In this document: positions 20,734 through 51,875 of the stretch, piece by piece
Position numbering within the stretch: the stretch's first letter is position 1
Layout of the letters: every line of letters starts with the position of its first letter
Origin: an uncultured Candidatus Saccharibacteria bacterium
Lineage (GTDB): Bacteria; Patescibacteriota; Saccharimonadia; Saccharimonadales; JAUPVS01
Direction: 5' to 3'
DNA length: 64,000 bases
NCBI GenBank assembly: GCA_964410185.1
Contig: CAYPFM010000002.1
Location: 134,047-198,046, forward strand
Translations under genes and position numbers: made by a program
Notes under the pieces: generated by a model
What the model was told of the DNA's origin: nothing
Seen by the model: the letters and a program-made list of their open reading frames with translations, nothing else
Databases searched by the model: none

Positions 20734-20775
20734 TTGGGTTTATTATACGCAAAAAAACAGGTAAGCTAAAGCGTA

Positions 20776-22428: not shown

Positions 22429-22431
22429 CGA

Positions 22432-27161: not shown

Positions 27162-27247
27162 CCAAAGGCCTTATGGTAACTAGACTATAATCGGTCAACC
27201 TTGCTGGACGCCCCATGGCTTTTAGCTTATGCTAGCACTACACTCGT

Positions 27248-34203: not shown

Positions 34204-34217
34204 CGTTTTCAGTGAAA

Positions 34218-35219: not shown

Positions 35220-35258
35220 ATTAACTGGAATTATAGCACAGAGCCCAGGAGCAAAGAA

Positions 35259-36281: not shown

Positions 36282-36334
36282 ATTACTCCCAATTATCTGT
36301 TGTTTATACATAAGCATAGTGTAACATAAGTGGC

Positions 36335-37793: not shown

Positions 37794-37799
37794 GCTCGG

Positions 37800-38459
37800 C
37801 TAACCTCGCTTAATCAAGGTGACTGAAATGTCGGTAACAACGTTGATGTAATGCTGAATAGCAAAAGCACGCGCCTCTTCGCTGCGGTTTTGCCAGTTGG
37901 GGGTAATTGAGTAGCCGTAGCTAAAATCAAAGTCGCAACTTACTGGGTAGTGGTCAAGCTTGTTATCGATGCGCCACTGTTTGTTGACATACAGAAAACT
38001 AGCTTCGCTGATGGCACGTTGGTGGGTTGGATCCTGCCAAGCCCGCATACTGCTGTAGTAAGGACAGACGATGGTGGCAAAGCCCTTAATTGGAATGTTG
38101 GGGTTATTCGGATCAAACTCGGCTGGTTTGAGAATGCGGTAGATTTCGTCAAAGAACTGGAAGAATGGATCGTGACGGCTGTCACCATGTGGAATGTGTT
38201 CCACGAAGTTGCTGCATTCAATCTCATCTACTGAATTGTCTTTGAATTGCTTCCAAGGAAATTTCATCAAGTCCTGTACGTATGTGGTTGACTTGGTTTT
38301 AACAATGTCTACACCCTGGAATCCTTCCGGCACATTGTCGCCACCGCCAAGTGATAGCTTCAATATCGGAAGTTCCTTTGGGGTGCGCTTAACGGGCGCC
38401 CTTTTATCATTTAGTGCTTTAGTCTTTAAAGTCTTCTTGACTGGTTTTTTGGTTGGCAT
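37800..38459 (-). CDS. Class I SAM-dependent methyltransferase-like protein with Lys-rich N-terminus
   Basis: Start MPTKKPVKK at 38459 with an AGGGAG SD. LSLGGGDNVPEGFQGVDIV (motif I-like) and VDEIECSNFVEHIP (motif II/III-like). Confidence 0.55.
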   Translation of the reverse strand: MPTKKPVKKTLKTKALNDKRAPVKRTPKELPILKLSLGGGDNVPEGFQGVDIVKTKSTTYVQDLMKFPWKQFKDNSVDEIECSNFVEHIPHGDSRHDPFFQFFDEIYRILKPAEFDPNNPNIPIKGFATIVCPYYSSMRAWQDPTHQRAISEASFLYVNKQWRIDNKLDHYPVSCDFDFSYGYSITPNWQNRSEEARAFAIQHYINVVTDISVTLIKRG

Positions 38460-38482
38460 AATTTCTCCCTTAATCTTCCCGT

Positions 38483-39211
38483 TTACCACATTATCTGTGT
38501 AGCTGCATCATAGTGACCGACTTTAACCCGCGAATCACAGGCCACTTTGTAGCCCATATCGCGTGCCTTTTGGAAAAACCACAGATCTTGCGTCATCATT
38601 TGAGTGCCACCACCAGGAACGACTTCTTGCTTGGTTTTAAACCAGTGTCCGTAGTCAAAGCGCTTGTCTTTGAGCATTTCCATGCGGAAAAGCGTGAAAC
38701 CCATTCCCAGGCCGTTGCAGGGCGTAATGGTATCTGGCGGCGGGACCTGTGGGATGAAATTCATTGGCATGACTTCAGGGTTGCCATAGCACATTGGCTG
38801 CCCGGTCTCGCCTTTAGTCCAGTAGAGACCACCAACTGCGTCATAGTCATCAATTGACTCGTATAGTTTCATGAGGCCATCGGCTGGTGGAGCGTTGTCT
38901 TCTTCAAGGGTTAGGATGAACTTGAACTTACTCAGTTCGGGGTTTTCGAGGATCATTTTAATAACGCTATTATAGGCTTCGCCGACTTCCATGCCCTCCA
39001 TAAAGATGGGCCCAATAACTTTCTGATTCATTGGTTTAATCAGACCCTGCCAGTTCTGGACGATGCGTGCCGAAATCATACCCCGGGTTGGGCAGACAAT
39101 AATGGTTGACAAGTCGCGATAACTTTTGGCCTTTTCGAGACGGTCAACGTAGTCGCTGGCGTTATGGATACCAGTATCATTAGGTACTAAAATCTGTGGT
39201 TTTGTCATCAT
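38483..39211 (-). CDS. Putative GT-A fold glycosyltransferase
   Basis: 242 aa; STIIVCPTRG, FILTLEEDN (DxD-like acidic motif), GLGMGFTLFRMEMLK and TQDLWFFQKARDMGYKV. The assignment is by pattern only. Confidence 0.45.
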   Translation of the reverse strand: MMTKPQILVPNDTGIHNASDYVDRLEKAKSYRDLSTIIVCPTRGMISARIVQNWQGLIKPMNQKVIGPIFMEGMEVGEAYNSVIKMILENPELSKFKFILTLEEDNAPPADGLMKLYESIDDYDAVGGLYWTKGETGQPMCYGNPEVMPMNFIPQVPPPDTITPCNGLGMGFTLFRMEMLKDKRFDYGHWFKTKQEVVPGGGTQMMTQDLWFFQKARDMGYKVACDSRVKVGHYDAATQIMW

Positions 39212-39292
39212 CCCTCAATAAGTATTAACAGTTCAGAACCATTATAGCCGCAACAAGCATCAAACCCCAAGCATAAGGGGAAGAACGAGGAC

Positions 39293-41395
39293 CTAGAAGG
39301 TTCCCGAGTAGCGGTTATTAAGAATCATATGCGGCATAAAAATGGCTGTGGCGTTGTTGCGGTTAACAGCGTTTGAAGCGATAGTAGCCGGCATGCTTGA
39401 CCGGGTGGCAGTAAACATGGCGTTCCAGTAGTTACCGTGCGCTAACGAGGTGTTGGTTGCTACGGTCGTGCCAATACTGCCACTCCGTTGGAGTGAGTGC
39501 ATAAAGTTCTGGCCGATGTACGACATGGGTGGCCCATAGTTGGAAGAGTTGAAGATAACCCCCACAACGTAGTCGTTACCAGAGGAAAAATTAGGGGCAC
39601 TTGACCATTGGCTGGACACGAACGACAGCCAGCGCGGGCCATGATAGTTGGCGGTATTACTGGTAGCAGCCGTAAAACCCCAGGTTGTTGTTGCCGAGTT
39701 GATAAGAGTCAGCCGAGTACTTTCGTCGAGATAGATACCCAGGCTGACGGTAATGCTATGCGAGCTGCTAAGAGATGTTGCCGTCATGTTGGCTGTCATA
39801 TTAAGTAAGAAAGTATTGGCAGTTATGTCATGGCCAAATTCATTGTTTTCTTGATTGAACCGTTGCAGCATCAGTGTGCGATGGGCAGTTGCCAGCGAGG
39901 CCGAAGTACCGCGATCCATATTCTGATAGAAGTCGAGGACATTGCCACCACCACCAGCAGGTGCTGAAGCGGTAACCGTAGAGCCGGTCAGCCCCATGGT
40001 TATGTTGCCCGACCCGTTGGAGTTACCGGCCCAGAGAATTGGCATGGTGCTATCGGCGGTCGAGTTGGTGAATTGTGCGGAGTTGTATCCGTCAGCCGCA
40101 CCACCGCCTGCAGGAACGGAAATGACGACACTGCCGTTGCTGGCGCCAACCGAGGCAATGCCAGCCCCTGCAAACGACAATGACCGGGCATCAACGGTGG
40201 CTGATGTACTCTGGGTCGTATTACTGTTGGCATACAAGCCAACTGTCTGGTTGCTCTGCGCTGCCACCGATACGGAGATTGAGTTGGAAGCAATCGTGCC
40301 CGAAGCATTGGTGCCATTAAAGCCAGCCGTGGCTTGCACATAGTTGGTGCTGGCGTTAGAGCCGAGGTAGGAAGTGTTGACGCTGCCCGAGATATTCTGG
40401 CCGTTAAAACTCCAACTGACACCGTTGGCGTTTACAAAGCTGGCCGTTCCACTAGTGATGCTGTTGTTGCTACCAGAAAGAACCACGCCAGCTCCACCGG
40501 CGCCACCAGAAATCGTGACGGCGTTACCGTTCTGTGACAGCGTAATGTTGTTGCCACCGGCCAAAGACAACGTGCCGGAACTAATCTGAGCCATGACACC
40601 AGCAGTGTTACCGCTGAGTGTAACGTTGTGGAGGTTCTGGGTTTGGACGGTTTGGTTAGCGGCCGAAATAGTGATGGTTGAGGCGTTGTTGCCGACGGTG
40701 ACATTATTGCCACCAGAAATCGACACAGCGCCCTGGGTGCCGTTGACGGTCATGAGGTTCTGGGTTTGGACGGTTTGGTTAGCGGCCGAAACAGTGATGG
40801 TGTTCCCTCCAGCCCCGGTTGATTGGCTCAGGGTGACGTTGTTGCCACCAGCAAAAACTATCTGGTTACTGGCCGTGCCGCTGGTTCCAACGCTGTTGCC
40901 AATGTTGCTGACGCCGCCACGGAACATGTTCGGGCCGCTGATGCTAACAGTTTGCCAAGAGCCAAACAAGGCGTCGGTACCGGTGGCGTTAGACAGGGTA
41001 ATGTTGTTGCCGCCGGCAAGGTAGAGGCTTTTGTTGGCCAGAAAATTACCATCACCAGAGGTGTTGCCGCCCGACATGCCGGCACTTAAGGCGTATAGGC
41101 TAGGAGCATTTACCGAAATAGTATTGGAGCTTTGCGATACGTAGAGGTTGTTGAAGTAAAAACGAGCTTCGTTGGAGCTAATGGTGTTTAGGGTACCAAA
41201 GGTAAGGTTGCCGCTCACGCCGATAGTCGGCGCCATACCGGAAACGGTAATGGCGTTTCCGTTCTGGGATAGCGTAATATTGTTGCCGCCAGCCAGCGTT
41301 ACGGTACCAGTAGAGGCTAGCGCACCGGCACCAGCGGTGTTGCCGCCGATGGTCGCGTTAATTCGCCCTCCGTTTAGCCCAGGTGTGTATGCCAT
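39293..41395 (-). CDS. 700-aa G/N/S/T-rich repeat protein (beta-helix/fibre-like), no signal peptide
   Basis: Recurrent (L/F)AGGNN(I/V)TLSQ..GN.(I/V)T(V/I)S(G/A) and SAANQTVQTQNL units, plus a distinct ~230-aa C-terminal domain. I count about 33 N-x-S/T tripeptides by eye. Confidence 0.6.
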   Translation of the reverse strand: MAYTPGLNGGRINATIGGNTAGAGALASTGTVTLAGGNNITLSQNGNAITVSGMAPTIGVSGNLTFGTLNTISSNEARFYFNNLYVSQSSNTISVNAPSLYALSAGMSGGNTSGDGNFLANKSLYLAGGNNITLSNATGTDALFGSWQTVSISGPNMFRGGVSNIGNSVGTSGTASNQIVFAGGNNVTLSQSTGAGGNTITVSAANQTVQTQNLMTVNGTQGAVSISGGNNVTVGNNASTITISAANQTVQTQNLHNVTLSGNTAGVMAQISSGTLSLAGGNNITLSQNGNAVTISGGAGGAGVVLSGSNNSITSGTASFVNANGVSWSFNGQNISGSVNTSYLGSNASTNYVQATAGFNGTNASGTIASNSISVSVAAQSNQTVGLYANSNTTQSTSATVDARSLSFAGAGIASVGASNGSVVISVPAGGGAADGYNSAQFTNSTADSTMPILWAGNSNGSGNITMGLTGSTVTASAPAGGGGNVLDFYQNMDRGTSASLATAHRTLMLQRFNQENNEFGHDITANTFLLNMTANMTATSLSSSHSITVSLGIYLDESTRLTLINSATTTWGFTAATSNTANYHGPRWLSFVSSQWSSAPNFSSGNDYVVGVIFNSSNYGPPMSYIGQNFMHSLQRSGSIGTTVATNTSLAHGNYWNAMFTATRSSMPATIASNAVNRNNATAIFMPHMILNNRYSGTF

Positions 41396-41397
41396 AT

Positions 41398-42105
41398 CTA
41401 GATAATATACCAGTTACTGCCGTCGGAGACGACTGTTGCCGACGTGTATTGTAGATCTAAGGTGTGTGAGGTAGCACCGTCAATGGTATCGCCACCGGAA
41501 CGAGCGATGGTGACCGTGTTGCCGCTGGCGTCCTTGCGCTTGACGTAAAAACGATAGCCCGGCGAGCCAGAAGCTGCCGGCAGCGTGATGGTGACGTTGT
41601 TGCTGCTGGCGTCCGCAATGATAACCGTATCGGTGTTAGTGATGGTATAGCTGGTGCCAGTCTTGGTAGAGGTTGCGTAGATACCCTGCCCCCAGCTTGG
41701 TAGGCCGCTCGCGACAGTAAGAACTTGGCCAGTTCCACCTATCCCTAAACGCACAAAATAACCACTGGCATCGCGGTAGTAGATATCACCGGTGGCTCCA
41801 GAGGTGTCGTCAAAAGCCGCTAACACCTTGCGGGTGGTGCTGGTGGTTTGGGTGACGTAAAAACGATCAGTTAAGAATTCAATCGCGCCGGCTTCAGGCG
41901 CAGTCATGAGGCTACCAGAGGTCAGTTTAATTGGTGCCGTTCCGGCGGCAGTCGTACCGGCGCGAACGGTTATCTTTTGGTGACCTCCGTTAACGGCATT
42001 ATCGGTGCCATCATCGTAATGTTCCTTTTTGAGGTACTGATTAATGATGTCACCCCAGGCGCCATCATCGCTGTTTACAATCGGTAATCGTTGGGGGGTA
42101 GGCAT
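41398..42105 (-). CDS. Phage tail-fibre-like protein
   Basis: 235 aa; LPIVNSDDGAWGDIINQYL, GDIYYRDASGYFVRLGIGGTGQVLTVASGLPSWG, and C-terminal VTITLPAASGSPGYRFYVKRKDASGNTVTIARSGGDTIDG...SDGSNWYI. These patterns recur in caudoviral minor tail/fibre proteins. Confidence 0.5.
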   Translation of the reverse strand: MPTPQRLPIVNSDDGAWGDIINQYLKKEHYDDGTDNAVNGGHQKITVRAGTTAAGTAPIKLTSGSLMTAPEAGAIEFLTDRFYVTQTTSTTRKVLAAFDDTSGATGDIYYRDASGYFVRLGIGGTGQVLTVASGLPSWGQGIYATSTKTGTSYTITNTDTVIIADASSNNVTITLPAASGSPGYRFYVKRKDASGNTVTIARSGGDTIDGATSHTLDLQYTSATVVSDGSNWYII

Positions 42106-42389: not shown

Positions 42390-42983
42390 CTATTTGCCGT
42401 AACGTTCAGAGGCAGTTTGCCAGTTGGCGATGTGCCACCAGGCGGCCACATAATCGGCTCGATTATAGGTATAATCGAGGTAGTAAGCATGCTCCCAGAC
42501 ATCGAGACCCAAAATCGGTTCGGGCTGGCCAAAATTGATCGGCGTGTCTTGGTTTGGCGTGGTCGTGATAGACAGGTCTGGCATCAGCCAAGCCCAACCA
42601 GCTCCAAAGATACCTAACGATGTCTTGGTAAACTCATCCATATAGGCTTGAAAGGAGCCGTATTTGGCCACAATGTCTTCGGCCAATTTGCCGGTTGGTT
42701 CGCCGCCATTATCGGGTGTCAAAAATTGCCAAAACAGCGAGTGGTTGTAGTGTCCGCCACCGAAGTTACGGAGAGCGTTGCGGACGTGCTCGGGAGCTGC
42801 GTCCAGGTTGCTTAATAATTCAACAATTGATTTGTCTTTTAGTTCCGGTGCCTGGTCAATGGTGGCATTGAGTTTATCAACGTAAATTTGGTGATGTTTG
42901 GTATGATGCATCTCCATGATGGCCTTGCTGACATACTTGCCGAGGGCATCGTATTCAAAATCGAGGGCTGGTAACGTAAACAT
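42390..42983 (-). CDS. sodA: Fe/Mn superoxide dismutase
   Basis: MFTLPALDFEYDAL...HHTKHHQIYV...DVWEHAYYLDY. ATG 42983 is preferred over the track start 43019 (TTG). Confidence 0.93.
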   Translation of the reverse strand: MFTLPALDFEYDALGKYVSKAIMEMHHTKHHQIYVDKLNATIDQAPELKDKSIVELLSNLDAAPEHVRNALRNFGGGHYNHSLFWQFLTPDNGGEPTGKLAEDIVAKYGSFQAYMDEFTKTSLGIFGAGWAWLMPDLSITTTPNQDTPINFGQPEPILGLDVWEHAYYLDYTYNRADYVAAWWHIANWQTASERYGK

Positions 42984-43015
42984 GAGCTTAGTGTAGTGCT
43001 TGGGTTCGGGCGGTG

Positions 43016-43147
43016 TCAAACCAGCTGATGCTTAAGCTTGCGCCAGCGGCGGGCTTGCAGTCGGGCGGCGCGCTGCTGCCACTCCGGTTGGACGTCTTCG
43101 TAATCATCCTTGAAGCTTTCATAGTTGCGAGGTGTAATTTTGACCAT
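43016..43147 (-). CDS. Possible 43-aa basic micro-protein
   Basis: ATG 43147 is preceded by GGGAGA: MVKITPRNYESFKDDYEDVQPEWQQRAARLQARRWRKLKHQLV. Confidence 0.3.
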   Translation of the reverse strand: MVKITPRNYESFKDDYEDVQPEWQQRAARLQARRWRKLKHQLV

Positions 43148-43242: not shown

Positions 43243-43884
43243 TTAGATTAAACGAGCTTGCAGTTTGGCCAGATCTTTGATGAGAATGCCCTGTCGACTA
43301 GCACTTACCAAGTCTTCGGCGATGAGCTTGCGCATCTCGCGGTTGATGGTCTCACGACTGAGACCGGTATGGGTTGCGAGCTCACTTTCGTTCATCTTCA
43401 CAAAGCAGCCGTTTTTGGTGCGATTTTCGCCCAGTCGGTTGGCTTGCAGGATGAGCTCGTAGAGGACTCGTTGCTCGGCGGTGCTCCCCATCAGGCGGAC
43501 CATTCGGCCCAGAATGCCACTCGTGCCTTTGTAGACACGGCTCAGGAGGTCGTACATGACATCCGGATTCTCCTTAATAAAGGCGACCACCGCTTTGGGG
43601 GGCGCAGCCTGGTAGCTCAGGGGTGTTATGGATTCAAAGAAGTGCGGGTTGGGCGTCTTATTAATCGCCCATGACATCGGGAAAAAACTACCGGCTCGGA
43701 ACCGGTTAACGACAATTTCGTCACCCCGCGCAGAAACGCTGTATTCGCGAACTTCGCCTTCCAAAAGATGGTAGACGTGCTCCGGATCTTCGTTAGCCAG
43801 AATGAGCAACTGCCCCTTACGTGCCTGTTGCGTTGGGTAGCCACTGAAGAAGCGATTAATTTTGCCTGAAACAGTGCTTGTCAC
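43243..43884 (-). CDS. Crp/Fnr-family transcriptional regulator
   Basis: 213 aa; a cNMP-binding-like beta-barrel, then the HTH ESELATHTGLSRETINREMRKL. Confidence 0.85.
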   Translation of the reverse strand: MTSTVSGKINRFFSGYPTQQARKGQLLILANEDPEHVYHLLEGEVREYSVSARGDEIVVNRFRAGSFFPMSWAINKTPNPHFFESITPLSYQAAPPKAVVAFIKENPDVMYDLLSRVYKGTSGILGRMVRLMGSTAEQRVLYELILQANRLGENRTKNGCFVKMNESELATHTGLSRETINREMRKLIAEDLVSASRQGILIKDLAKLQARLI

Positions 43885-44013
43885 GTCTTGACTATACTGT
43901 TTTTTAGGGATGAATCAAAGCCAAGAACGTGGCTTTCACCAAGAACTACTTATGAAAGAAAGCATCGAAAAAGTCAATATACTTCACGCTGGCTTTGTCT
44001 TACAATAGCCGTA

Positions 44014-44679
44014 ATGCGAAAAGGAACAAAAATTGCCATTGTTTGCACGGGTTTTTTGTTGTTTACCGTTGCGGTAGTGGGCTACGGTTTTTGGCGAGCC
44101 AGCCGAAAGCCACAGGCAAAAATTGTCGTCCCGGCGCCTACCAGCTCGACGGCCGGTACCCTGCAGGCCGCCAGTAATTCGGGCACTTCTTTGAGTGTTG
44201 GCAATAATACCGGTTTGGGTGGCGGTACCGAAATTAGCAGCTCCGCTAATCAGCAAACTGGAACTTCAAGCTCCAGCAAGCCGGCCACCTCATCCACCGC
44301 CGGTCCGGAAAGCTTTGGTCAGTACGAGCAGTATAAAGACAGTAAAACGACGCTCTACTCCGACTTGCAGGTCGGTACTGGCGCGGAACTTGTGGCTGGC
44401 AAAAAAGCCGCCGTTATTTACAAGGTCTGGTTAACCAACGGTACGCTGGTTGACGAGAGTAAACTGGACAAGCCTGGCGGTAAGCTGCAGCCCTTCGTCT
44501 TTACGCTTGGTGATCACTCGGTTATCCCCGGCTGGGAGCAAGGTGTTTTTGGCATGAAAGTAAATGGCGTCCGCCGTATGATTATTCCGGCTGCTCTGGC
44601 CTACGGTGCGCAAGGTCAGAGCGGCGTCCCGCCGAACTCCATGCTCATTATTGATGTTCAGTTATTGCAAGTTCAGTAA
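44014..44679 (+). CDS. Membrane-anchored FKBP-type peptidyl-prolyl isomerase
   Basis: Start MRKGTKIAIV at 44014; TM; a low-complexity linker; VIYKVWLTNGTLVDES...FTLGDHSVIPGWEQGVFGMKVNGVRRMIIPAALAYG. Confidence 0.88.
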   Translation: MRKGTKIAIVCTGFLLFTVAVVGYGFWRASRKPQAKIVVPAPTSSTAGTLQAASNSGTSLSVGNNTGLGGGTEISSSANQQTGTSSSSKPATSSTAGPESFGQYEQYKDSKTTLYSDLQVGTGAELVAGKKAAVIYKVWLTNGTLVDESKLDKPGGKLQPFVFTLGDHSVIPGWEQGVFGMKVNGVRRMIIPAALAYGAQGQSGVPPNSMLIIDVQLLQVQ

Positions 44680-44680
44680 C

Positions 44681-45463
44681 CTAGAACCAGTACTGTTTGG
44701 CGAAGAGACCGACCGTAACCAGCAAACCGATTATTACGACGATTCGGCGGATGACTTTGGTTGGTAACTTGGTGCTGTAGGCGGCACCAAACCAGCCGCC
44801 AAGGACGCTACCAACCAACAAGGCTGGTAACACCGACCAAGCGATCAGTCCGATGTGCACAAAGTACAGCACGGTCGTAAAGCTAATGGCGGTTCCGATG
44901 AGGTTTTTGAGCCCACTCATCTGATAGATATTGGTTAACTCGCTGAGCCCCAAAAAGGCCAGCATAATGATTCCAAGGCCAGCCCCAAAGTAACCGCCAT
45001 AGACCGCCAAAACGAACATGCAGATAAAAATGATCGAAAAAAACACGCCATGAAAACGCTTTTCTAACTTTTTGGCTTTGCGTGAGTAGAGCCATTTGTG
45101 TAGTGCCGGCTGGAACGCCAATAGGACGGTGGCCGACAACATGAACCAGGGCACGATATATTCGAAAGTACGGTCGGTGGTGCGGCCAAGCATGACTGCG
45201 CCGAGCATCCCGCCCAGCACGGCTGGTATGAGTAGTAAGTAGTATCGGCGCGGAAGCTTTGCAAGGTATTTTCGGTAGCCAAAGGCCGAACTGGCTTGAC
45301 CAGGACAGGTTACAAAACTAAAGGTGGCATTGGCGCTAATCGGCGGGATTCCAAGGCTCAGGAGTAACGGATAAAGCAACAACGCTCCCCCACCCGCGAC
45401 GGCGTTGACCATGCCAGCCACAAAGCCAAACAAAAACAGGGTACCAAGGTGGAGCGCATTCAT
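44681..45463 (-). CDS. TauE/SafE-family anion exporter permease
   Basis: 260 aa; 7-8 TM; FLFGFVAGMVNAVAGGGALLLYPLL is typical of TauE. Confidence 0.75.
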   Translation of the reverse strand: MNALHLGTLFLFGFVAGMVNAVAGGGALLLYPLLLSLGIPPISANATFSFVTCPGQASSAFGYRKYLAKLPRRYYLLLIPAVLGGMLGAVMLGRTTDRTFEYIVPWFMLSATVLLAFQPALHKWLYSRKAKKLEKRFHGVFFSIIFICMFVLAVYGGYFGAGLGIIMLAFLGLSELTNIYQMSGLKNLIGTAISFTTVLYFVHIGLIAWSVLPALLVGSVLGGWFGAAYSTKLPTKVIRRIVVIIGLLVTVGLFAKQYWF

Positions 45464-45522: not shown

Positions 45523-45789
45523 TTAGGCTGTTTGCTTGGTACGGTGCATGCAGCCTACCCAGCAACACGGTCGCCGCTTGCCGGTGAGCAGTTCTTGGGG
45601 TACGCGTTCCACGTGGTTCTTGCGTGTCTCTGGCTTTTTGCAGGTCTCAACCCAGCAAATCCACTCATTTCTAGCCAGAGGCGTAATATCTTCCCATAGC
45701 TCCTGGGCTTGTTCGTCCGCCATAAGCGCGGCACGTAAGTCGGCCGGGATTTTGTGGACCACGCCTTGGGACAATTGTTGCGTTTTCAT
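45523..45789 (-). CDS. YdeI/OmpD-associated family protein
   Basis: 88 aa; IPADLRAAL...ELWEDITPLARNEWICWVETCKKPETRKNHVER matches the OmdA/YdeI C-terminal pattern. Confidence 0.65.
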   Translation of the reverse strand: MKTQQLSQGVVHKIPADLRAALMADEQAQELWEDITPLARNEWICWVETCKKPETRKNHVERVPQELLTGKRRPCCWVGCMHRTKQTA

Positions 45790-45797
45790 ATGCGGAA

Positions 45798-46655
45798 TTA
45801 TAGCAAATAGACGTACAGCAAGGCCATCGTCACCACAAAGCCGGCGAACCAGTTAATCTTGATGAAGCGCTTCCAGGCGGCGTTAGAGGTGGCAGCGTCC
45901 TTTTCGGTAACACTAATATATGGCCAAATGTTAGCGATGTAGCAAAGATTGACCGCTCCAACGATCAGCCCTAACCAGCCAAAGTACAGCATGATCAGGC
46001 CAGATGCGGCGTACAGGACGGCCGCAAAGCGGACCGTTTGTTTGGCGCCAATGACGGTCGCAATTGAACCAATGCCAGCGGCCTTATCGGACGTGATGTC
46101 CTGAACAGCGCCAAAGGCGTGACTGGCCATTCCCCACAAAAAGAACGACCCGACCATGACGGCATAGGCTGGTTGATAATGACTAAACGTCAGTGCGTAG
46201 ACCAGCGGCCCAACAAAGTGGATGCTGGAGGTCATCGAGTCGATAAACGGCCGTTCTTTAAAGCGCAGTTTGGGCAGGCTGTAGGCGAGTACCATGAACA
46301 TTACAAAGGCCAGCACGGCCGAGCCGACGGCCGTGCTTTGGGCGAACAAAAATATCAAGAATGGTATACACAGCGACACCGAAGCCACCAAGGTAAGCTT
46401 GTGGGTCGACTTGGCCAGCTTAGCGCCCTCTACCCCGCCCTTGCGCGGATTGAGCATATCCGACTCGTAGTCAAAGACGTCATTCACACCGTACATCAAC
46501 AGGTTATACGGAATTAAGAAGAAGACGGTGCCAACGACAAGGGTGGCATCGACCGTTCGGGTGGTCATAAAATAGCCGCCGGCAAACGGGTAGGCCGTAT
46601 TGATCCACGATATCGGCCGTGACGTTACGAAGAGATATTTAATCTTTGTTAGCAT
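45798..46655 (-). CDS. crtEb: UbiA-family prenyltransferase, lycopene elongase-like (CrtEb/LyeJ type)
   Basis: 285 aa; NDVFDYESDMLNPRKGG Asp-rich motif; multi-TM. It is the last gene of the crt operon and overlaps the cyclase subunit gene by 17 nt. Confidence 0.7.
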   Translation of the reverse strand: MLTKIKYLFVTSRPISWINTAYPFAGGYFMTTRTVDATLVVGTVFFLIPYNLLMYGVNDVFDYESDMLNPRKGGVEGAKLAKSTHKLTLVASVSLCIPFLIFLFAQSTAVGSAVLAFVMFMVLAYSLPKLRFKERPFIDSMTSSIHFVGPLVYALTFSHYQPAYAVMVGSFFLWGMASHAFGAVQDITSDKAAGIGSIATVIGAKQTVRFAAVLYAASGLIMLYFGWLGLIVGAVNLCYIANIWPYISVTEKDAATSNAAWKRFIKINWFAGFVVTMALLYVYLL

Positions 46656-46929
46656 AGCGTTTCCATAAATATGGTATCAGAACTACCGCGGCCAGCGTGT
46701 AAGCAAAATCTTCGATTGGTGCCCGGCCGACGTAGAAACCAATAATTTTGAGGCTATCGTAGGCGACGATGTGTGTGCCGACAATCAAGCTATCAAAGAC
46801 GGCCGTCATCATGAGTAAAACTGCCAGGATGGTTACAATTGGTCGCCAGGCCAGCTTTTGCGGCCACAGCAGACAGACCAAGCCAAGCCCGGCCAGTACG
46901 GCGACATCAAGCGCGATATAGGTGAACAC
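46639..46929 (-). CDS. crtYf: Lycopene cyclase-domain small subunit (heterodimeric carotenoid cyclase)
   Basis: 96 aa, 3 TM, ...APIEDFAYTLAAVVLIPYL (the PxE(E/D) motif of the cyclase domain). Confidence 0.7.
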   Translation of the reverse strand: MFTYIALDVAVLAGLGLVCLLWPQKLAWRPIVTILAVLLMMTAVFDSLIVGTHIVAYDSLKIIGFYVGRAPIEDFAYTLAAVVLIPYLWKRYANKD

Positions 46930-47221
46930 AGCCCCTCCAGAGTAATAATGTCACGTAGGTGAACATGGATAAGAAGAATAGTTCCTCGAGCGGCACGCGT
47001 GGCAGCAGCATGACATGCAAGGCGTATGGTGAGTTGCCTGGGAAGAATATCTTGAGCGCCACCCCCAGGATGTCCCAGACCAAGAAGAACCCCACCGCCG
47101 TGGCCAGGGTTTTGGCGGTTCGTTGCCAGTCGTAGAAAAAGGCTAGCCGCAGGCGCCAATCAGCCACCAGCAATATTGCGATTACCGCCAGCAAACTGCC
47201 TAGATAGGCGTAGTGCATCAT
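46907..47221 (-). CDS. crtYe: Lycopene cyclase-domain small subunit (heterodimeric carotenoid cyclase)
   Basis: 104 aa, 3 TM, ...LLPRVPLEELFFLSMFTYVTLL (PxEE motif). Confidence 0.7.
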   Translation of the reverse strand: MMHYAYLGSLLAVIAILLVADWRLRLAFFYDWQRTAKTLATAVGFFLVWDILGVALKIFFPGNSPYALHVMLLPRVPLEELFFLSMFTYVTLLLWRGCVHLYRA

Positions 47222-48729
47222 AGCGGTTGTATTCCCCCCAGTGGGCCGCTGGTTTTGTCACCAACCAGGCGTTTGTAGACCAGTTCGGCGCCAATTAGGC
47301 ACATCGGGATGCCAATGCCTGGCACAGTGCTCGCTCCGACGTAGTACAAGTTCTTCACTTTCTTGCTCTTGTTGCGGGGGCGGAAGACGGCGCTTTGGCG
47401 CAGGGTGTGCGACAGGCCCAGGGCGGTTCCCTGCCAAGCATTAAAATCATGGCTAAATTCAGATGGACCGTAGGTGCGCTTAAAGACGATCCGTTTGGCC
47501 AGGTCGGGCGTGTTGCTCATCTGGGCAATCTGTTCAATATATTGATCGGCGAGTTTGTCGAGCCCCGCTTTGCCGAGCTTTTCGACGGCTGGCCCGGGCA
47601 CCAACACGAACATATTTTCGTAACCTTTTGGTGCTACCGACGGATCAGTTTTGCTGGGCACGCAGACGTACAGCGACGCTGGCTCCGGCCATTCCTGCTT
47701 GTCAAAAATCTGACTAAAGCTGGTCTGCCACTGATCGCTAAAGAACAGGTTGTGGTGCTCAAAGCCTTTCAGCTCACCCTTAACGCCCAAGTACAACAAG
47801 ACGGCCGACGGCCCGTTGGTGCGTTTTTGCCAGTATTGTTCGGGGTAGGTTTGTAGGTGTTTAGGAAGCAACTGAGTTTCAGTAAAATGTAGGTCGGCGT
47901 TGGACACAACCAAGTCGGCCATAACCTTGCTGCCATTGGCGAGTTTAATGCCAGTAGCCACCCCTGCTTTGGTGATAATCTGGGTGGTTGGGCTATTGTA
48001 GTGGTACTGAACGCCCAGTTTTGTACCAATCTTGACCAACGACTCAATAATCTTGTATAGCCCGCCCTGCGGGTAGTAGACGCCTTGGCTAAAGTCGAGG
48101 TGACTCATTAAAGAATAAATGGCTGGTGCCTTGAACGGCGAGGTACCCAAAAAGACGGCGTGGTATTCCATGACCTTTTGTAGCTTAGGATTGGTAATCG
48201 AGGCTTCGACATTTTGGTGCAAGGTCTTTTTAGCCATAGCCAACATCTTGGGGCCAGCCGCAAGGACTTCTTTGGCCACAACGTTTTTGGGCGACGTAAA
48301 GTTGTTATACAAAAAGTAGCGAGTGGCGATATTGTAGATTTGCTGCGACTTGGTGAGGTAGTCGTCCAAGGCCTGTCCACTGCCCTTTTGGATGGACTCA
48401 AAGGTCTGGCGGTCGTGCTTTAGGTTACCCTGGATGGCTAGCGTGGTGCCATCCTGGTAGGTAATTTTGTAACCCGGCTTAAGACGAATTAAATCAAGTT
48501 GTTGCGTGACGTCCTCACCCAGCAGTCGGTAGTATTGTTCAAACACTTCGGGCATAAGGTACCACGACGGGCCGGTATCAAACCGAAACCCCCGGGCGTC
48601 AAAACGCCCGGCCCGCCCGCCCGGCTGACTATTCTTTTCATACACGCTTACTTGCAGCCCGGCTTTGGCCAGAATGTTTGCTAAGGCCAGACCACCAACG
48701 CCGGCACCAATAATAACGGCCGTCTTCAC
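47218..48729 (-). CDS. crtI: Phytoene desaturase
   Basis: 503 aa (GTG start, GTGA overlap with crtB); VIIGAGVGGLALA dinucleotide fold; C-terminal YYVGASTVPGIGIPMCLIGAE. Confidence 0.92.
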   Translation of the reverse strand: MKTAVIIGAGVGGLALANILAKAGLQVSVYEKNSQPGGRAGRFDARGFRFDTGPSWYLMPEVFEQYYRLLGEDVTQQLDLIRLKPGYKITYQDGTTLAIQGNLKHDRQTFESIQKGSGQALDDYLTKSQQIYNIATRYFLYNNFTSPKNVVAKEVLAAGPKMLAMAKKTLHQNVEASITNPKLQKVMEYHAVFLGTSPFKAPAIYSLMSHLDFSQGVYYPQGGLYKIIESLVKIGTKLGVQYHYNSPTTQIITKAGVATGIKLANGSKVMADLVVSNADLHFTETQLLPKHLQTYPEQYWQKRTNGPSAVLLYLGVKGELKGFEHHNLFFSDQWQTSFSQIFDKQEWPEPASLYVCVPSKTDPSVAPKGYENMFVLVPGPAVEKLGKAGLDKLADQYIEQIAQMSNTPDLAKRIVFKRTYGPSEFSHDFNAWQGTALGLSHTLRQSAVFRPRNKSKKVKNLYYVGASTVPGIGIPMCLIGAELVYKRLVGDKTSGPLGGIQPL

Positions 48730-49541
48730 ACCGACCCCGGCTTGGTCAGGAGTAGTAATTTGTACGAGTTCTTGATGCGCACCCGCTTGGTTTTAATCAC
48801 GTCGATCGGCGTGTCCTTGAGCTTAGTCAGTAAGGCGGTGTAATAGCGATAGCTGGCAGTGACGGCTCGGCGGGCACCGGGTGGGAGTTGGCGAATGGCC
48901 GGAACGGCGGCGGCAAAATCGGCCTCGATATCTGTAATGATGGCCGCTTTTTGCTTTTCATCAAGACCCTCAAACGTCACGCCCGGAAAGTAGCAGCGGC
49001 CCAACTCTTTGTAGTCTTCGGCGATGTCACGCAAAAAGTTTACCTTTTGGTAGGCGGCTCCCAATTTACTGGCGCCATCTTTTAGAGAGTCGTAACGCGC
49101 ATCGTCACCATTACAAAATACCCGCAAGCACATTAAGCCAACCACTTCGGCGGAACCGTAAATGTAGGCCTGGTATTGGCTGGCCGTAAAGGACTTTTTA
49201 GTCAGGTCGGTCCGCATACTGGCAAAGAATGGTTTGAGCAATGCTTGGGTGATACCAAATTGGCGGGCGGTGGCTTGGAAGGCGTGCACGATGGGGTTGG
49301 CGCTGTAGCCTCGTTCCATGGCGCGGTAGGTTTCGGCTTCAAGCTCATTGAGCATGGCCTCGGCATGTGGCCCGTGGTAGGTGTCAACAATCTCGTCGGC
49401 AATCCGGGTTAAGCCGTAAATGTCGTAGATGTGCTGGCGGATGGATTTGCTGAAGAGCCGACTAGCCAGGCCAAATGAACTGGAGTAGGCGTTGGTAAAC
49501 AGACGACTACCAGCCCGAGAGGTGGATAAGTACAAGTCCAT
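48726..49541 (-). CDS. crtB: Phytoene synthase
   Basis: Start MDLYLSTSRAGS at 49541 (TAATG junction with crtE); SSSFGLASRLF, YGLTRIADEIVD, YQKVNFLRDIAEDY. Confidence 0.9.
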   Translation of the reverse strand: MDLYLSTSRAGSRLFTNAYSSSFGLASRLFSKSIRQHIYDIYGLTRIADEIVDTYHGPHAEAMLNELEAETYRAMERGYSANPIVHAFQATARQFGITQALLKPFFASMRTDLTKKSFTASQYQAYIYGSAEVVGLMCLRVFCNGDDARYDSLKDGASKLGAAYQKVNFLRDIAEDYKELGRCYFPGVTFEGLDEKQKAAIITDIEADFAAAVPAIRQLPPGARRAVTASYRYYTALLTKLKDTPIDVIKTKRVRIKNSYKLLLLTKPGSV

Positions 49542-50632
49542 TACTTGACTCGCTTGGTGGCCTTTTGGATGATCTGGCGGAAGGCGTCCTTGGCGGCGTC
49601 GGACATAGCCAGACACTCGAGCATGCTGGTGGCTTGAGCGGCGTACAGCTCGATTTGGGCTAGGCAGTCAGCTTTGGCCCCGCAGCGTTCCAAGATGGCC
49701 TGAACCTGCTTGGCTTGCGTTTGGGTAACCTTGGGGTTGCCTAGCAGCTTTTGTAGCTTGGCCAAATCGGCCTTGTTGGCTCGGGCAATCGCCTGCTCCA
49801 TTAAGTAGGTGCGCTTGCCCTCGCGAATGTCGCCGACAGTGGTTTTGCCGGTAACTTTGGAGTCACCGTAAATACCAAGTAGATCATCGGCCAGCTGGAA
49901 GGCGATGCCCAAAGCAATGCCCATCTCTTCAATCAGGCCAACATCTGGCTTGCCAGCATTAGCCAGTAGCGCGCCAGTGACCATCGGGCCGACAAAGGAG
50001 TATCGTGCCGTTTTGAGGTCGGCAATTTTGAGTGCTTTCCCGCTTCCCCAGGCTAGTAAAGAAGACTCGGTGTCGAGTAGTTCGCCACCACCAACCAAAA
50101 AGATCGATTCGCCCAGCTTTGCCGTGGCTTGGGCTTTTTGCGCGTCATTGAGCTGGCTGCTGGCGATGAGCTGGTAGGCGCCAGACAGCAAAAGATCACC
50201 CGCCAAGATGGCGGCGCTGTTACCAAAATGCTCGGCGTTACGGCCAGCCCCCCGCTTGCTATACGACTTCTTCATCAGCCCGGCCACATTGTCCTGGCCA
50301 TAGCGAACATAGTCTTTATCAATAATGTCGTCGTGTATCAGCAAGCTAACATGCAGTAGTTCCTGCGCGGCCGCCACTGGTAAAACTTGCTCGTAGTCGG
50401 CGCCGCCATAGGCAAGATAGGTCAGTACCAAGAAATACGGGCGCAGCCGTTTACCACCGACCATTGCCAGCGACTCCATGGCCCGCCACAGATCGCCATA
50501 TTGCTCGTCCAGCTGATCGCTGTGGGTGACATTGTCAGCAAAGTACTTCGCCAAGAAGTCGCCTACATCTTGTTTGACGCGATCTTGGCTGAGAATTAGG
50601 TCACGTACATCGGGTGTATTGGCTTGACTCAT
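49541..50632 (-). CDS. crtE: Polyprenyl (geranylgeranyl) diphosphate synthase
   Basis: 363 aa; FARM LLIHDDIIDKD and SARM FQLADDLLG. Confidence 0.88.
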   Translation of the reverse strand: MSQANTPDVRDLILSQDRVKQDVGDFLAKYFADNVTHSDQLDEQYGDLWRAMESLAMVGGKRLRPYFLVLTYLAYGGADYEQVLPVAAAQELLHVSLLIHDDIIDKDYVRYGQDNVAGLMKKSYSKRGAGRNAEHFGNSAAILAGDLLLSGAYQLIASSQLNDAQKAQATAKLGESIFLVGGGELLDTESSLLAWGSGKALKIADLKTARYSFVGPMVTGALLANAGKPDVGLIEEMGIALGIAFQLADDLLGIYGDSKVTGKTTVGDIREGKRTYLMEQAIARANKADLAKLQKLLGNPKVTQTQAKQVQAILERCGAKADCLAQIELYAAQATSMLECLAMSDAAKDAFRQIIQKATKRVK

Positions 50633-50887
50633 CTGTTTTATTATAGCAAAAAACGGCCGCTAATCACTCCTCATGCCCTGGCTTTGTATTAGCTAGAGCT
50701 GCCAGGCTTGCGGCACCGAACGGCGCTACTCGGTTACCCAAGCCGCTGATAATTTTCGACCGCTTATCGAAGACATCAAGCTAGTAGCGTTCAAAAACTA
50801 GGGCTATTGTTGAGATACCTGGACAAAAACCACTGTAAGTTGTTAAAATAATGGTTACGGTTACACAACAAAAAAAAGGAACTCAAA

Positions 50888-51604
50888 ATGATGAAAAGAA
50901 AAATTGTAGTCAGCCTGGTGGCAATGCTCTTTGCCTTAGGCCTATTTAGCGTGCCGGTCTTGGCCAGGGACGGTACGAGCGGAAGTGACGATAATACCAC
51001 AACCACACAAGCAGCTACCACTGCACCCGATGACTCAACAACTCAAACGACCACGCACGAGAACTCAAGCGACACAACGAAGACTGAGCGGCAGAAACAA
51101 GTAACCAAAGTTGAGCAAGAAGCTGACGACAAAGCCAAATCTACTCAAGAAGATGGTCTTGAAACCGAGGCCAAGCTAGAAGTTGCCTCCTTGCTCAAAG
51201 TTCATGATAAGCACACTGACTCCGATCGACAAAAGGCCTGCCAAGCGGCTGAACAAGGCCTTGAAACCAAGCTGGGTGGTCTGGCAACCAATAGTACTAG
51301 CTTTCAGACCAAAATCGACACTGCCCTTAATCTAGCTATCGGCTACCAAAAAGATCAAAACGTTACCGTTGCTAACTTCGACCAGCTTGTCGCTGCTGCA
51401 CAGGCGGCCAAAGCCAAGGCTGCTGCCTCGGTAACTGTGCTGAATGGCCTGAGCCCAAACCTGGACTGTAGTCAGAATACGGTGGCAACCAACCTTGCTA
51501 AATTCAAGGTGGCAACCAAGCAAGCCAAAACGGACTTGCTGGCCTACAAAGAAGCTGTTAAGGCTGTCTTACGAGCCTTAGAAGACGCAAAGGCGGGCAA
51601 CTAA
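50888..51604 (+). CDS. Secreted alpha-helical hypothetical protein
   Basis: 238 aa; signal peptide ...VLARDG, a T/D-rich stretch, then coiled-coil-like A/K/E-rich sequence. Confidence 0.5.
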   Translation: MMKRKIVVSLVAMLFALGLFSVPVLARDGTSGSDDNTTTTQAATTAPDDSTTQTTTHENSSDTTKTERQKQVTKVEQEADDKAKSTQEDGLETEAKLEVASLLKVHDKHTDSDRQKACQAAEQGLETKLGGLATNSTSFQTKIDTALNLAIGYQKDQNVTVANFDQLVAAAQAAKAKAAASVTVLNGLSPNLDCSQNTVATNLAKFKVATKQAKTDLLAYKEAVKAVLRALEDAKAGN

Positions 51605-51605
51605 G

Positions 51606-51875
51606 ATGAAACGTAGTAACAACCAACATGGCTTCGCCGCACTCGAATTAATTTTAATCGCAGTTGTCGTTGTCTTCATCGGTTTTATCAGCGTAAAAGT
51701 GTTCAAAAAGCCAACTGCGACTAAGACGACTGTCGTTTCCTCTCAGGTCACCATGCCCACCAAGATTCAGTCCAAGGCTGACGTGAGCCAGTCCATCAAA
51801 GCACTCGACGCGGCACCAATCGACAGCAAGCTAGACCCAAACCAACTTAATGGCAGTATCAACTCGCTCCTGTAA
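51606..51875 (+). CDS. Type IV pilin-like protein (prepilin-type N-terminal signal)
   Basis: 89 aa; MKRSNNQHG|FAALELILIAVVVVFIGF shows G/F cleavage context with Glu at +5 and a hydrophobic helix. Confidence 0.6.
   Translation: MKRSNNQHGFAALELILIAVVVVFIGFISVKVFKKPTATKTTVVSSQVTMPTKIQSKADVSQSIKALDAAPIDSKLDPNQLNGSINSLL

Follow-up and report, generated by a model that had tools for sequence, protein, structure and literature searches.

A complete crtE-B-I-Ye-Yf-Eb gene set was found on the minus strand at 45798-50632 of the window, the 64-kb stretch of DNA analyzed here. It probably represents a native operon that is predicted to be functional in the synthesis of a cyclic C50 carotenoid and would go back to a single ancient exchange with Actinobacteria. 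C50 carotenoid genes have been known in Patescibacteria since 2023; the present locus points to a tiny symbiotic Saccharimonadales bacterium with an intact C50 operon, which appears to be long-established and widespread in the group and not a recent gift of the host.

The six genes and the flanking features are arranged as follows:

50633-50887, minus strand: intergenic region 5' of crtE, 255 nt
49541-50632, minus strand: crtE, 363 aa, ATG start, first gene of the operon; trans-isoprenyl diphosphate synthase, presumed GGPP synthase
48726-49541, minus strand: crtB, 271 aa, ATG start; putative phytoene synthase (SQS_PSY family)
47218-48729, minus strand: crtI, 503 aa, GTG start; putative phytoene desaturase
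46907-47221, minus strand: crtYe, 104 aa, ATG start; putative first subunit (~100 aa) of a heterodimeric carotenoid cyclase
46639-46929, minus strand: crtYf, 96 aa, GTG start; putative second subunit of the cyclase
45798-46655, minus strand: crtEb, 285 aa, ATG start; putative UbiA-type lycopene elongase (adds DMAPP C5 units onto the lycopene ends)
45523-45789, minus strand: OmdA/YdeI-domain ORF, 88 aa (PF13376, 62.3 bits)

From crtE to crtEb, consecutive genes overlap by 1, 4, 4, 23, and 17 nt. Direct reading of the sequence identified the crtE/crtB junction as TAATG (49539-49543), in which the crtB ATG overlaps the crtE stop codon, the crtB/crtI junction as GTGA (48726-48729), in which the crtI GTG overlaps the crtB stop codon, and the crtI/crtYe junction as ATGA (47218-47221); the overlaps of crtYe with crtYf and of crtYf with crtEb span 46907-46929 and 46639-46655, respectively. 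The gene chain and junctions of the original prediction were thereby confirmed exactly. The tight start/stop overlaps imply a single translationally coupled transcript, and because six consecutive overlapping genes each match the expected family, a chance arrangement is excluded. The longest ORF of crtB has 296 aa and begins at a GTG at 49616, but the 271-aa form starting at ATG 49541 is the one recorded for the NCBI contig, and homologs have 265-271 aa. The GTG start of crtYf is preceded by GGAGG at a distance of 6-10 nt.

In profile searches CrtE matched PF00348 with 163 bits and reached no NCBIfam equivalog cutoff (GGPP_syn, 145 bits versus a cutoff of 500). It carries the Asp-rich motifs DDIID and DDLLG, and each of the 67 aligned homologs has the DDxxG form; identity to the first cluster gene of other loci is 32-47%. 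CrtB matched PF00494 (158 bits) and contains the motifs DEIVD and DIAED; CrtB-specific NCBIfam cutoffs were not reached, and its identification, based on family and genomic context, is at the family level. Thus, the assignments of CrtE and CrtB pass family thresholds, not equivalog ones. For CrtI, a score of 544 bits was obtained with TIGR02734 (crtI_fam, cutoff 238), and the N-terminal motif GAGVGG is present. Both small subunits exceeded the cutoff of 39.4 for the lycopene-cyclase domain TIGR03462, CrtYe with 56.7 bits and a PLEE motif, and CrtYf with 45.2 bits and a PIED motif, the latter also matching PF18916 (29.9 bits). CrtEb scored 396.9 bits against the UbiA prenyltransferase model NF009608/PRK13105 (cutoff 217) and contains NDVFDYESD and DITSD. 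The catalytic motifs are intact. The family matches, combined with the comparison of gene orders, bear out the earlier claim of a complete set in the actinobacterial C50 order.

By homology to the pathway of Corynebacterium glutamicum, CrtE would form GGPP from IPP and an allylic primer, CrtB would condense two GGPP to phytoene, and CrtI would desaturate phytoene to lycopene. CrtEb would then attach a DMAPP-derived C5 unit at both ends of lycopene to form an acyclic, flavuxanthin-type C50 intermediate, the ends of which would be cyclized by a CrtYe/CrtYf heterodimer to a pigment of the decaprenoxanthin, sarcinaxanthin or C.p.450 type. From these homologies we infer the assignment of the six genes to this pathway, and with it how long the chain is, how many desaturations occur and that rings are formed; which ring type the C50 pigment carries cannot be told from the sequence. 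The functions of crtB, crtI, crtEb, and crtYeYf in C. glutamicum have been established by deletion and complementation (PMC3598387), and Microbacteriaceae that have the same cluster were found to contain C50 pigments (PMC6669644).

The original prediction equated the gene order with that of the decaprenoxanthin operon of C. glutamicum, for which co-transcription has been shown (PMC3598387). The two operons indeed share the enzymes and their relative order; however, in C. glutamicum cg0722, encoding an MMPL-type membrane protein, is situated between crtE and crtB and the MarR regulator CrtR is present. As cg0722 is absent here, the closest match in gene order is the (idi-)crtE-B-I-Ye-Yf-Eb cluster of Microbacteriaceae. 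Such idi-crtE-B-I-Ye-Yf-Eb clusters occur in Microbacteriaceae and Micrococcaceae, e.g., as the lct genes of Agromyces mediolanus and cluster 2 of Marisediminicola antarctica (PMC6669644). The six genes were found in identical order and orientation in ~60 Micrococcales loci (GC 0.43-0.75), with identities to the window of 52-57% for CrtEb, 42-50% for CrtI, 40-49% for CrtB, and 32-41% for CrtE, and with the DDxxG form of the second CrtE motif in common. These loci belong to another phylum and mostly have a GC content of 0.60-0.75 compared to 0.53 in the window operon, in which the gene overlaps are tighter and which adjoins neither idi nor a divergent MarR regulator. In some Saccharimonadales relatives idi does adjoin the operon; in one locus (L015) it lies directly 5' of crtE, as in ~55 Micrococcales loci.

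The six-gene order was identified in at least eight other Saccharimonadales MAG loci, in which the GC of the operon follows that of its flanks (0.42-0.51). The 120 best CrtI matches were 52-88% identical, and the sole organism name among them was Saccharimonadales, none being actinobacterial. In neighbor-joining trees with a simple distance correction, rooted on one or two haloarchaeal sequences, the window sequences fell into a separate Saccharimonadales clade with bootstrap values of 100 for CrtI, 91 for CrtB, 100 for CrtE, and 100 for concatenates, with terminal branches of 0.3-0.4. More than 120 distinct CrtI clusters belong to this clade. The nearest relatives beyond this clade are Micrococcales. 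The sampled Actinobacteria, i.e., the 80 loci with the highest similarity to CrtEb, which comprise Micrococcales only and no named Corynebacterium or Dietzia, formed its sister clade (bootstrap 79-100), and Saccharimonadales were not nested within them. A deep CrtEb tree united Saccharimonadales and Actinobacteria with a bootstrap of 75 and placed all other 50%-cluster representatives outside. With CrtEb alone no monophyletic Saccharimonadales group was recovered, and Saccharimonadales were basal.

Most probably, the operon is part of an old and large Saccharimonadales-specific clade and has mostly been inherited vertically; one ancient transfer between the phyla would account for the ancestry that this clade shares with the Micrococcales-type cluster. 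A single such exchange is likely. Actinobacteria were more probably the donor and Saccharimonadales the recipient. A reverse exchange, or a third lineage that gave the cluster to both phyla, would fit the sister position of the two clades, the basal placement with CrtEb, the unnamed cluster representatives that branch just outside both groups, and the representatives labeled Dehalococcoidia and Ardenticatenaceae deeper in the same tree. This origin is considered unlikely: cyclic C50 clusters extend across several actinobacterial orders with a complete MEP pathway (PMC3598387, PMC6669644), whereas Saccharimonadia, which lack C5 synthesis (PMC9166423), are an unlikely cradle of the pathway. Moreover, a basal position is the expected long-branch artifact for a fast-evolving lineage with reduced genomes, and long-branch attraction could have pulled the Saccharimonadales clade out of the Actinobacteria.

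For the product, a C40 end point is improbable. In that case the small subunits would be a lycopene cyclase of the CrtYc/Yd type, and the UbiA enzyme would prenylate another substrate or serve a minor branch. TIGR03462 and PF18916 do not discriminate C40 from C50 heterodimeric cyclases, and a supply of carotene would be attractive since saccharibacterial rhodopsins need retinal (PMC9296517). However, CrtEb scores far above its equivalog cutoff, its gene is translationally coupled to crtYf by the 17-nt overlap, and all Saccharimonadales loci extending to the operon's 3' end retain a full-length elongase with aligned motifs. A Pfam scan of ~54 window ORFs, roughly three quarters of the called set, detected no rhodopsin or blh gene.

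An acyclic product of the bacterioruberin type, as proposed for Lake Baikal Patescibacteria, is quite improbable as well. Capacity for C50 carotenoids in Patescibacteria, including a Saccharibacteria genome, was claimed from homologs of lyeJ, crtD, and cruF, which were likewise described as an Actinobacteria-like pathway (Haro-Moreno et al., 2023; PMC9948471). In agreement with this reading, the best-scoring model for the window CrtI is the bifunctional CrtID (NF058655, 549.6 bits), but the score is under the cutoff of 640. Haloarchaea and pink Arthrobacter possess a bacterioruberin cluster, crtB-crtI/D-lyeJ-cruF (e.g., locus L082, on a Halarchaeum plasmid), in which a UbiA-family lycopene elongase is likewise combined with a phytoene synthase and a desaturase of the CrtI family. 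This cluster contains cruF and no cyclase subunits, whereas no CruF homolog was found in the window or in any Saccharimonadales locus, and two cyclase-domain genes lie between crtI and crtEb, as in cyclic C50 clusters. CrtEb is only 29% identical to the haloarchaeal protein in the LyeJ position, in contrast to 52-57% for the protein encoded at the end of Micrococcales C50 clusters. While the Lake Baikal genes are scattered and were read as a bacterioruberin pathway, the compact six-gene operon with cyclase subunits found here predicts a cyclic C50 product.

The composition of the operon is native. GC is 0.535 compared to 0.518 for the window, GC3 is 0.651 versus 0.585 ± 0.055, the codon-usage distance is 0.050 versus 0.047 ± 0.006 for 5-gene blocks, and the tetranucleotide correlation is 0.863 versus a mean of 0.865, which upholds the earlier impression that any transfer must be old. 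In a congener, the operon occupies the same chromosomal neighborhood with all six ORFs intact, four of unchanged length and crtB and crtYe encoding 265 and 106 aa, respectively. Synonymous sites are saturated in this comparison (pS 0.62-0.79) and pN is 0.07-0.29; for CrtI, which is 88% identical, pN is 0.07 and pS 0.72. These values indicate that the operon is maintained by purifying selection. The original picture of a host that passed the pathway to its symbiont does not hold, and a recent acquisition from the current actinobacterial host is effectively refuted. Cultivated Saccharibacteria have Actinobacteria as known hosts (PMC9296517), and the nearest named CrtEb relatives outside Patescibacteria are Micrococcales, but no actinobacterial protein identity exceeds 57%, the GC of most Micrococcales loci is higher, codon and tetranucleotide usage fit the recipient, and the genes belong to the broad, deep Saccharimonadales-only clade with its many CrtI clusters and have a chromosomal position conserved in the congener with its saturated synonymous sites.

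The contig is of Saccharimonadales and not actinobacterial origin. The window (GC 0.52) derives from a 240-kb NCBI contig that also encodes GltX 42 kb from the operon, and the named GltX relatives (72-82% identity) all come from Saccharibacteria, Patescibacteria or Saccharimonadales, with contigs that do not exceed ~1 Mb; the earlier assignment to Patescibacteria is thus borne out and narrowed to this order. An independent Logan assembly reproduced crtI-Ye-Yf-Eb-OmdA-TauE-FKBP identically, and three more assemblies, of the congener, have OmdA...FKBP-Crp-SOD after the operon, just like the window, so that an assembly artifact is excluded. A mis-binned or chimeric contig, in which an actinobacterial operon was joined to saccharibacterial DNA, has a negligible probability: the gene order is typically actinobacterial and the conflicting NCBI name of one match (P0065, Polaromonas/Saccharibacteria) indicates that labels on such contigs are sometimes unreliable, but besides the GltX marker and the flanks shared by four independent assemblies, composition is unbroken across the window and the operon lies on eight other Saccharimonadales MAG contigs of up to 286 kb.

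NDH-2, a cyo-type oxidase, heme O synthase (27248-28117, 351.5 bits), and an Fe/Mn SOD are also encoded in the window, which agrees with the oxidase and SOD noted originally. A C50 pigment would most likely reside in the membrane of this oxygen-exposed organism and may act as an antioxidant, photoprotectant or membrane stiffener. The heme O synthase indicates a native demand for prenyl diphosphates. Against the predicted pathway, no idi, MEP or mevalonate genes that could supply IPP and DMAPP were found within the 64-kb window, and published surveys assign only a C10-C20 isoprenoid module to Saccharimonadia (PMC9166423). The premise that isoprenoid-pigment synthesis is missing from such organisms was overstated, since C10-C20 synthesis is recognized and carotenoid genes had been published.

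A consensus scan of the operon strand upstream of crtE revealed no full -35/-10 promoter, match counts being no higher than in shuffled sequence, and no regulator gene adjoins the intergenic region. Located 7 nt 5' of the crtE ATG, the hexamer TATAAT (50640-50645) is a candidate promoter element, and its position would point to a transcript that is leaderless or has a very short leader. The OmdA ORF starts only 8 nt past crtEb and may be a co-transcribed seventh cistron. To our knowledge, no role of the OmdA domain in carotenoid synthesis has been described. An OmdA gene is also located 3' of crtEb in two congener contigs (L086 and L087), and none adjoins the operon in the more distant Saccharimonadales loci compared. 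The only MMPL gene of the window is located at 28091-30289, 16 kb from the operon.

Six open reading frames were found on the minus strand where a complete carotenoid operon had been predicted from the sequence, and each matched the expected family by its profile score:

49541-50632, minus strand: crtE, 363 aa; PF00348, 163 bits (cutoff 27)
48726-49541, minus strand: crtB, 271 aa; PF00494, 158.4 bits (cutoff 26)
47218-48729, minus strand: crtI, 503 aa; TIGR02734, 544.2 bits (cutoff 238.1)
46907-47221, minus strand: crtYe, 104 aa; TIGR03462, 56.7 bits (cutoff 39.4)
46639-46929, minus strand: crtYf, 96 aa; TIGR03462, 45.2 bits (cutoff 39.4)
45798-46655, minus strand: crtEb, 285 aa; NF009608/PRK13105, 396.9 bits (cutoff 217)

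This order on one strand is that of an actinobacterial-type C50 carotenoid operon. The overlapping junctions of the original prediction could also be read from the sequence, as TAATG, GTGA and ATGA, followed by overlaps of 23 and 17 nt. For the 240,253-bp NCBI contig, the recorded CrtB is the 271-aa form that starts with the ATG at 49541, and its homologs have 265-271 aa; with the in-frame GTG at 49616 as start, the protein would have 296 aa. An 88-aa OmdA-domain ORF is located 8 nt 3' of crtEb and may be co-transcribed with it. A TATAAT hexamer ends 7 nt 5' of the crtE ATG, a spacing that suggests a leaderless crtE transcript. Matches to the promoter consensus did not exceed expectation (2 vs. 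3.5 expected from shuffled sequence), and terminator matches (13 vs. 7.8 ± 3.0 in shuffled sequence) were judged not to be above it either. Two further ORFs of 108 and 106 aa, at 46833-47159 (over crtYe and crtYf) and 45536-45856 (covering the OmdA ORF together with the end of crtEb), were discarded as artefacts of ORF listing that are out of frame or antisense.

CrtEb passed the equivalog cutoff of NF009608/PRK13105 (396.9 vs. 217 bits), the next-best UbiA models scoring at most 151. Both Asp-rich motifs of UbiA proteins are present, NDVFDYESD at residues 58-66 (NDxxDxxxD) and DITSD at residues 186-190 (DxxxD). The crtEb gene directly follows the two cyclase subunit genes and overlaps crtYf by 17 nt, and it has this position in every locus covering that part of the cluster (at least 78 of 80). 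CrtEb is predicted to catalyze a DMAPP-dependent C5 addition to lycopene. CrtYe and CrtYf are two separate membrane subunits of ∼100 aa, each with one lycopene-cyclase domain above the TIGR03462 cutoff; CrtYf also passed PF18916, CrtYe did not. C40 and C50 cyclases are not told apart by these profile models. In heterodimeric carotenoid cyclases a PxE(E/D) motif is conserved in each subunit, and it was identified as PLEE in CrtYe and PIED in CrtYf.

CrtI carries the FAD-binding GxGxxG motif as GAGVGG at residues 8-13 and fails the equivalog of the bifunctional CrtID (NF058655, 549.6 bits vs. a cutoff of 640). CrtE and CrtB passed family-level thresholds only. Both DxxxD motifs of CrtB are present (DEIVD and DIAED), and it scored 104.9 bits with the HpnD model (cutoff 278.6). 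It reached none of the NCBIfam CrtB equivalogs (NF042419, NF045686 and NF045921; best score 69.8 vs. 480), whose cutoff would distinguish a phytoene synthase from HpnD, HpnC or a squalene synthase, so that its assignment as phytoene synthase rests on the operon context. CrtE contains the Asp-rich motifs DDIID and DDLLG, the latter a variant common to 67/67 cluster homologs, and its equivalog scores were below the cutoffs (GGPP_syn 145 vs. 500; GGPPSynCrtE 85 vs. 460); its C20 product is presumed from the fact that crtE comes first in the cluster.

Deletion and complementation in Corynebacterium glutamicum showed crtB, crtI, crtEb along with crtYeYf to be necessary and sufficient for the conversion of GGPP via lycopene and flavuxanthin to decaprenoxanthin (PMC3598387), and Microbacteriaceae with the same cluster make C.p.450- or decaprenoxanthin-type pigments (PMC6669644). 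Based on these gene functions and pigments, the operon should direct the synthesis of a cyclic C50 carotenoid, of which ring type, glycosylation and the chain length made by CrtE are not readable from the sequence. A bacterioruberin-type product, as was proposed for Baikal Patescibacteria (PMC9948471), is unlikely, since the operon encodes two cyclase subunits and its elongase shares no more than 29% identity with the gene that takes the place of LyeJ in haloarchaea. Moreover, CruF was not found by tblastn in the window and the Saccharimonadales loci when the protein from the Halarchaeum bacterioruberin cluster was used as query.

The possibility that the window is a mis-binned actinobacterial contig was rejected on the basis of the relatives of GltX (3546-4961). 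Besides the query, 120 homologs with 71-92% identity were listed, on contigs of at most about 1 Mb, and all organism names among them are Patescibacteria, Saccharibacteria or Saccharimonadales. The taxonomy of the window is based on these names, and therefore the contig carrying the operon is Saccharimonadales. The native composition that had been noted by eye was borne out by calculation: the operon is indistinguishable from the rest of the window in GC3 (0.651 vs. 0.585 ± 0.055), codon-usage distance (0.050 vs. 0.047 ± 0.006 for 5-gene blocks) and tetranucleotide correlation (r 0.863 vs. a mean of 0.865), and its GC content is 0.535 at 0.518 for the window. Downstream of the operon and the OmdA-domain ORF, the following genes were identified:

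44681-45463: TauE
43888-44679: secreted FKBP isomerase
43243-43884: Crp/Fnr-type regulator
42390-43019: Fe/Mn SOD

An independent Logan assembly reproduced the stretch crtI'-Ye-Yf-Eb-OmdA-TauE-FKBP identically. In three assemblies of a congener, whose CrtI is 88% identical, OmdA, FKBP, Crp and SOD come after the same six genes, in the order of the window. All six of its ORFs are intact and four are of unchanged length, CrtB having 265 aa and CrtYe 106 aa. Between window and congener, pS was 0.62-0.79 and pN 0.07-0.29, which is given as pN << pS because synonymous saturation precludes a proper dN/dS. Saturated pS, low pN and intact ORFs together indicate long-term purifying selection on the operon. 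By four lines of evidence, the operon is native to the Saccharimonadales genome. The order FKBP-Crp-SOD is kept in the congener contigs L085 and L086, but the Crp proteins are only 26% identical.

In searches with CrtEb, unnamed metagenomic proteins were found at 60-79% identity and named Saccharibacteria or Patescibacteria at 58-61%, followed by Micrococcales at 55-57% (Arthrobacter, Rathayibacter, Microbacterium). The best 120 clusters found with CrtI had 52-88% identity; the single organism name among them was Saccharimonadales and none was actinobacterial. In Saccharibacteria MAGs, the homologs already carry the NCBI annotation prenyltransferase or phytoene desaturase. Among the matches listed for GTDB species representatives, at least 10 loci were labelled Saccharimonadales or Patescibacteria; one further locus of low GC was labelled 'uncultured bacterium', and about 69 belonged to Micrococcales. 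The order E-B-I-Ye-Yf-Eb was observed in all listed loci long enough to show it, and for 6/6 operon proteins the best matches among the compared loci were in Saccharimonadales, a label assigned by the MAG submitters. The operon thus occurs in other Saccharimonadales MAGs at their own flank GC: operon and flank agreed in every locus, at 0.42-0.51 in Saccharimonadales MAGs and mostly 0.60-0.75 in Actinobacteria. In the more distant Saccharimonadales loci, the flanks have hardly anything in common with those of the window. In the plasmid collection only one Arthrobacter megaplasmid and haloarchaeal replicons were matched, which gives no evidence for a mobile vector.

Neighbor-joining bootstrap trees with a simple distance correction were rooted on one or two haloarchaeal sequences, and their actinobacterial sample consisted of the loci most similar to CrtEb. 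Saccharimonadales were monophyletic for CrtI (bootstrap 100), CrtB (91) and CrtE (100), as well as for the concatenates B+I+Eb (100, rooted on the Halarchaeum bacterioruberin cluster) and E+B+I+Eb (100). Their terminal branches were long (0.3-0.4) and Actinobacteria formed their sister clade with a bootstrap of 79-100. Of the phylogenies called for by the original prediction, CrtI and CrtB placed Saccharimonadales in a clade of their own, whereas CrtEb alone did not: resolution in its tree was weak, Saccharimonadales being paraphyletic at the base and Actinobacteria having a bootstrap of 52. When 50 representatives of 50%-identity clusters were added to the CrtEb tree, Saccharimonadales and Actinobacteria formed a clade (bootstrap 75) that excluded everything else. 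The nearest foreign representatives were Agromyces (52%) and a CrtYf-CrtEb fusion of Paenarthrobacter (53%); most representatives carried no name, and the labels obtained were Agromyces, Paenarthrobacter, Dehalococcoidia, Ardenticatenaceae and one Saccharimonadales, with no Corynebacterium or Dietzia among them.

Type-1 idi genes adjoin the crt operon in three Saccharimonadales loci:

L015, 1122-1622: idi directly 5' of crtE (219.8 bits, cutoff 127)
L005, 10847-11395: idi after crtEb
L002, 2714-3202: idi after crtEb

Among the loci listed, about 55 of Micrococcales likewise have idi directly before crtE. Taken as a whole, the clusters of Saccharimonadales and of the Micrococcales type are homologous, which points to a single passage of the unit between the phyla, after which it evolved independently in Saccharimonadales for a long time. 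A transfer from Actinobacteria to Saccharimonadales is the more probable direction, because several actinobacterial orders with the cluster make their own IPP (PMC3598387, PMC6669644). This amounts to a well-resolved ancient cluster exchange between Saccharimonadales and Micrococcales-type Actinobacteria. To our knowledge, the Actinobacteria are the only phylum hosting cultivated Saccharibacteria.

Elsewhere in the window, an aerobic respiratory module extends over 19543-30289:

19543-20733: NDH-2
20776-22428: FAD-linked oxidase
22432-24175: three small ORFs
24130-26217: cyoB
26217-27161: cyoA
27248-28117: heme O synthase (351.5 bits)
28091-30289: MMPL transporter

This module needs a quinone and FPP, neither of which Saccharibacteria are known to make. 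Soil Saccharibacteria have already been described as having a cyo operon together with heme O synthase and NADH dehydrogenase (PMC8407418, PMC11659515), and for Saccharimonadia only a C10-C20 isoprenoid module was reported (PMC9166423). Recognisable C5-pathway genes were not found in the 64-kb window: tblastn with Saccharimonadales idi gave no match there, and no IP kinase was identified, the AA-kinase ORF being PyrH. Two NUDIX ORFs in the window were considered as idi and rejected. FPP is already needed by the same genome for heme O synthase, and the pigment pathway sharpens the question of the source of IPP, DMAPP and FPP in Saccharimonadales. It is conceivable, though rather doubtful, that environmental Saccharimonadales of a large, oxygen-exposed clade lack a C5 pathway and yet synthesize a cyclic C50 carotenoid of their own, from isoprenoid precursors taken from the actinobacterial host. 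If so, the pathway would have been gained long ago from the host lineage and would still be fed by the host today, and pigment synthesis would report on how precursors move between host and episymbiont.

The usual picture of Saccharibacteria is that of episymbionts with a minimal metabolism, which obtain lipids and cofactors from the host. A conserved and selected six-enzyme pigment pathway across many environmental Saccharimonadales suggests that some invest in their own membrane chemistry, which fits an aerobic, possibly light-exposed lifestyle beside the cyo oxidase and SOD. The enzymes and their arrangement are a known system and represent no new kind of enzyme, pathway or mechanism. C50-carotenoid genes were described in Patescibacteria in one earlier report (PMC9948471). 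In the literature library searched, no paper was found on the compact operon of the cyclic type, on how widely it occurs in Saccharimonadales or on how it relates to the Micrococcales clusters, and carotenoids are not mentioned in a 2024 survey of Saccharibacteria genomes. The operon is thus a solid trait of environmental Saccharimonadales that has been somewhat overlooked, and a C50 carotenoid would serve as a chemotaxonomic marker of these uncultured cells and possibly as an optical handle for sorting or imaging them.

Other Saccharimonadales versions of the operon have additional genes. In L004 and L057, the start of crtE is overlapped by a gene for a TetR regulator, and in L057 an MMPL transporter, reminiscent of cg0722 of C. 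glutamicum, is located divergently upstream. Directly 3' of crtEb in L004 lies a GT2 glycosyltransferase, 36% identical to the product of 59471-60331 of the window, which may glycosylate the carotenoid (coordinates of extra genes: L004, 5433-6017 and 10858-11577; L057, 1104-3877). A gene pair for a 238-aa secreted low-complexity protein and an 89-aa protein whose N-terminus resembles that of type IV pilins (GFAALELI) adjoins the operon in the window (50888-51875), L017 (2998-3914) and L046 (3842-4770), on varying sides. Among the homologous proteins, elongase-like UbiA domains are fused to a C-terminal GT2 glycosyltransferase in P0265, P0266, P0280 and P0295 (530-720 aa), one of which is labelled Saccharimonadales, and to an N-terminal lycopene-cyclase domain (LbtBC-like) in P0255, P0256 and P0258 (388-429 aa); P0256 branches inside the Saccharimonadales clade.

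The region 33490-42105 of the window, shared in part with L017, encodes surface proteins or proteins with a signal peptide, along with others that match no family. It contains weak matches to a WxL-interacting domain (34218-35219) and to T4 gp9/10 (41398-42105; E 7.6e-4, below cutoff), and could serve in adhesion or attachment to a host, or be the remnant of a phage. A BtuR/CobO-type ATP:corrinoid adenosyltransferase (62158-62727, 163.9 bits) in this reduced genome points to the use of a salvaged corrinoid cofactor.
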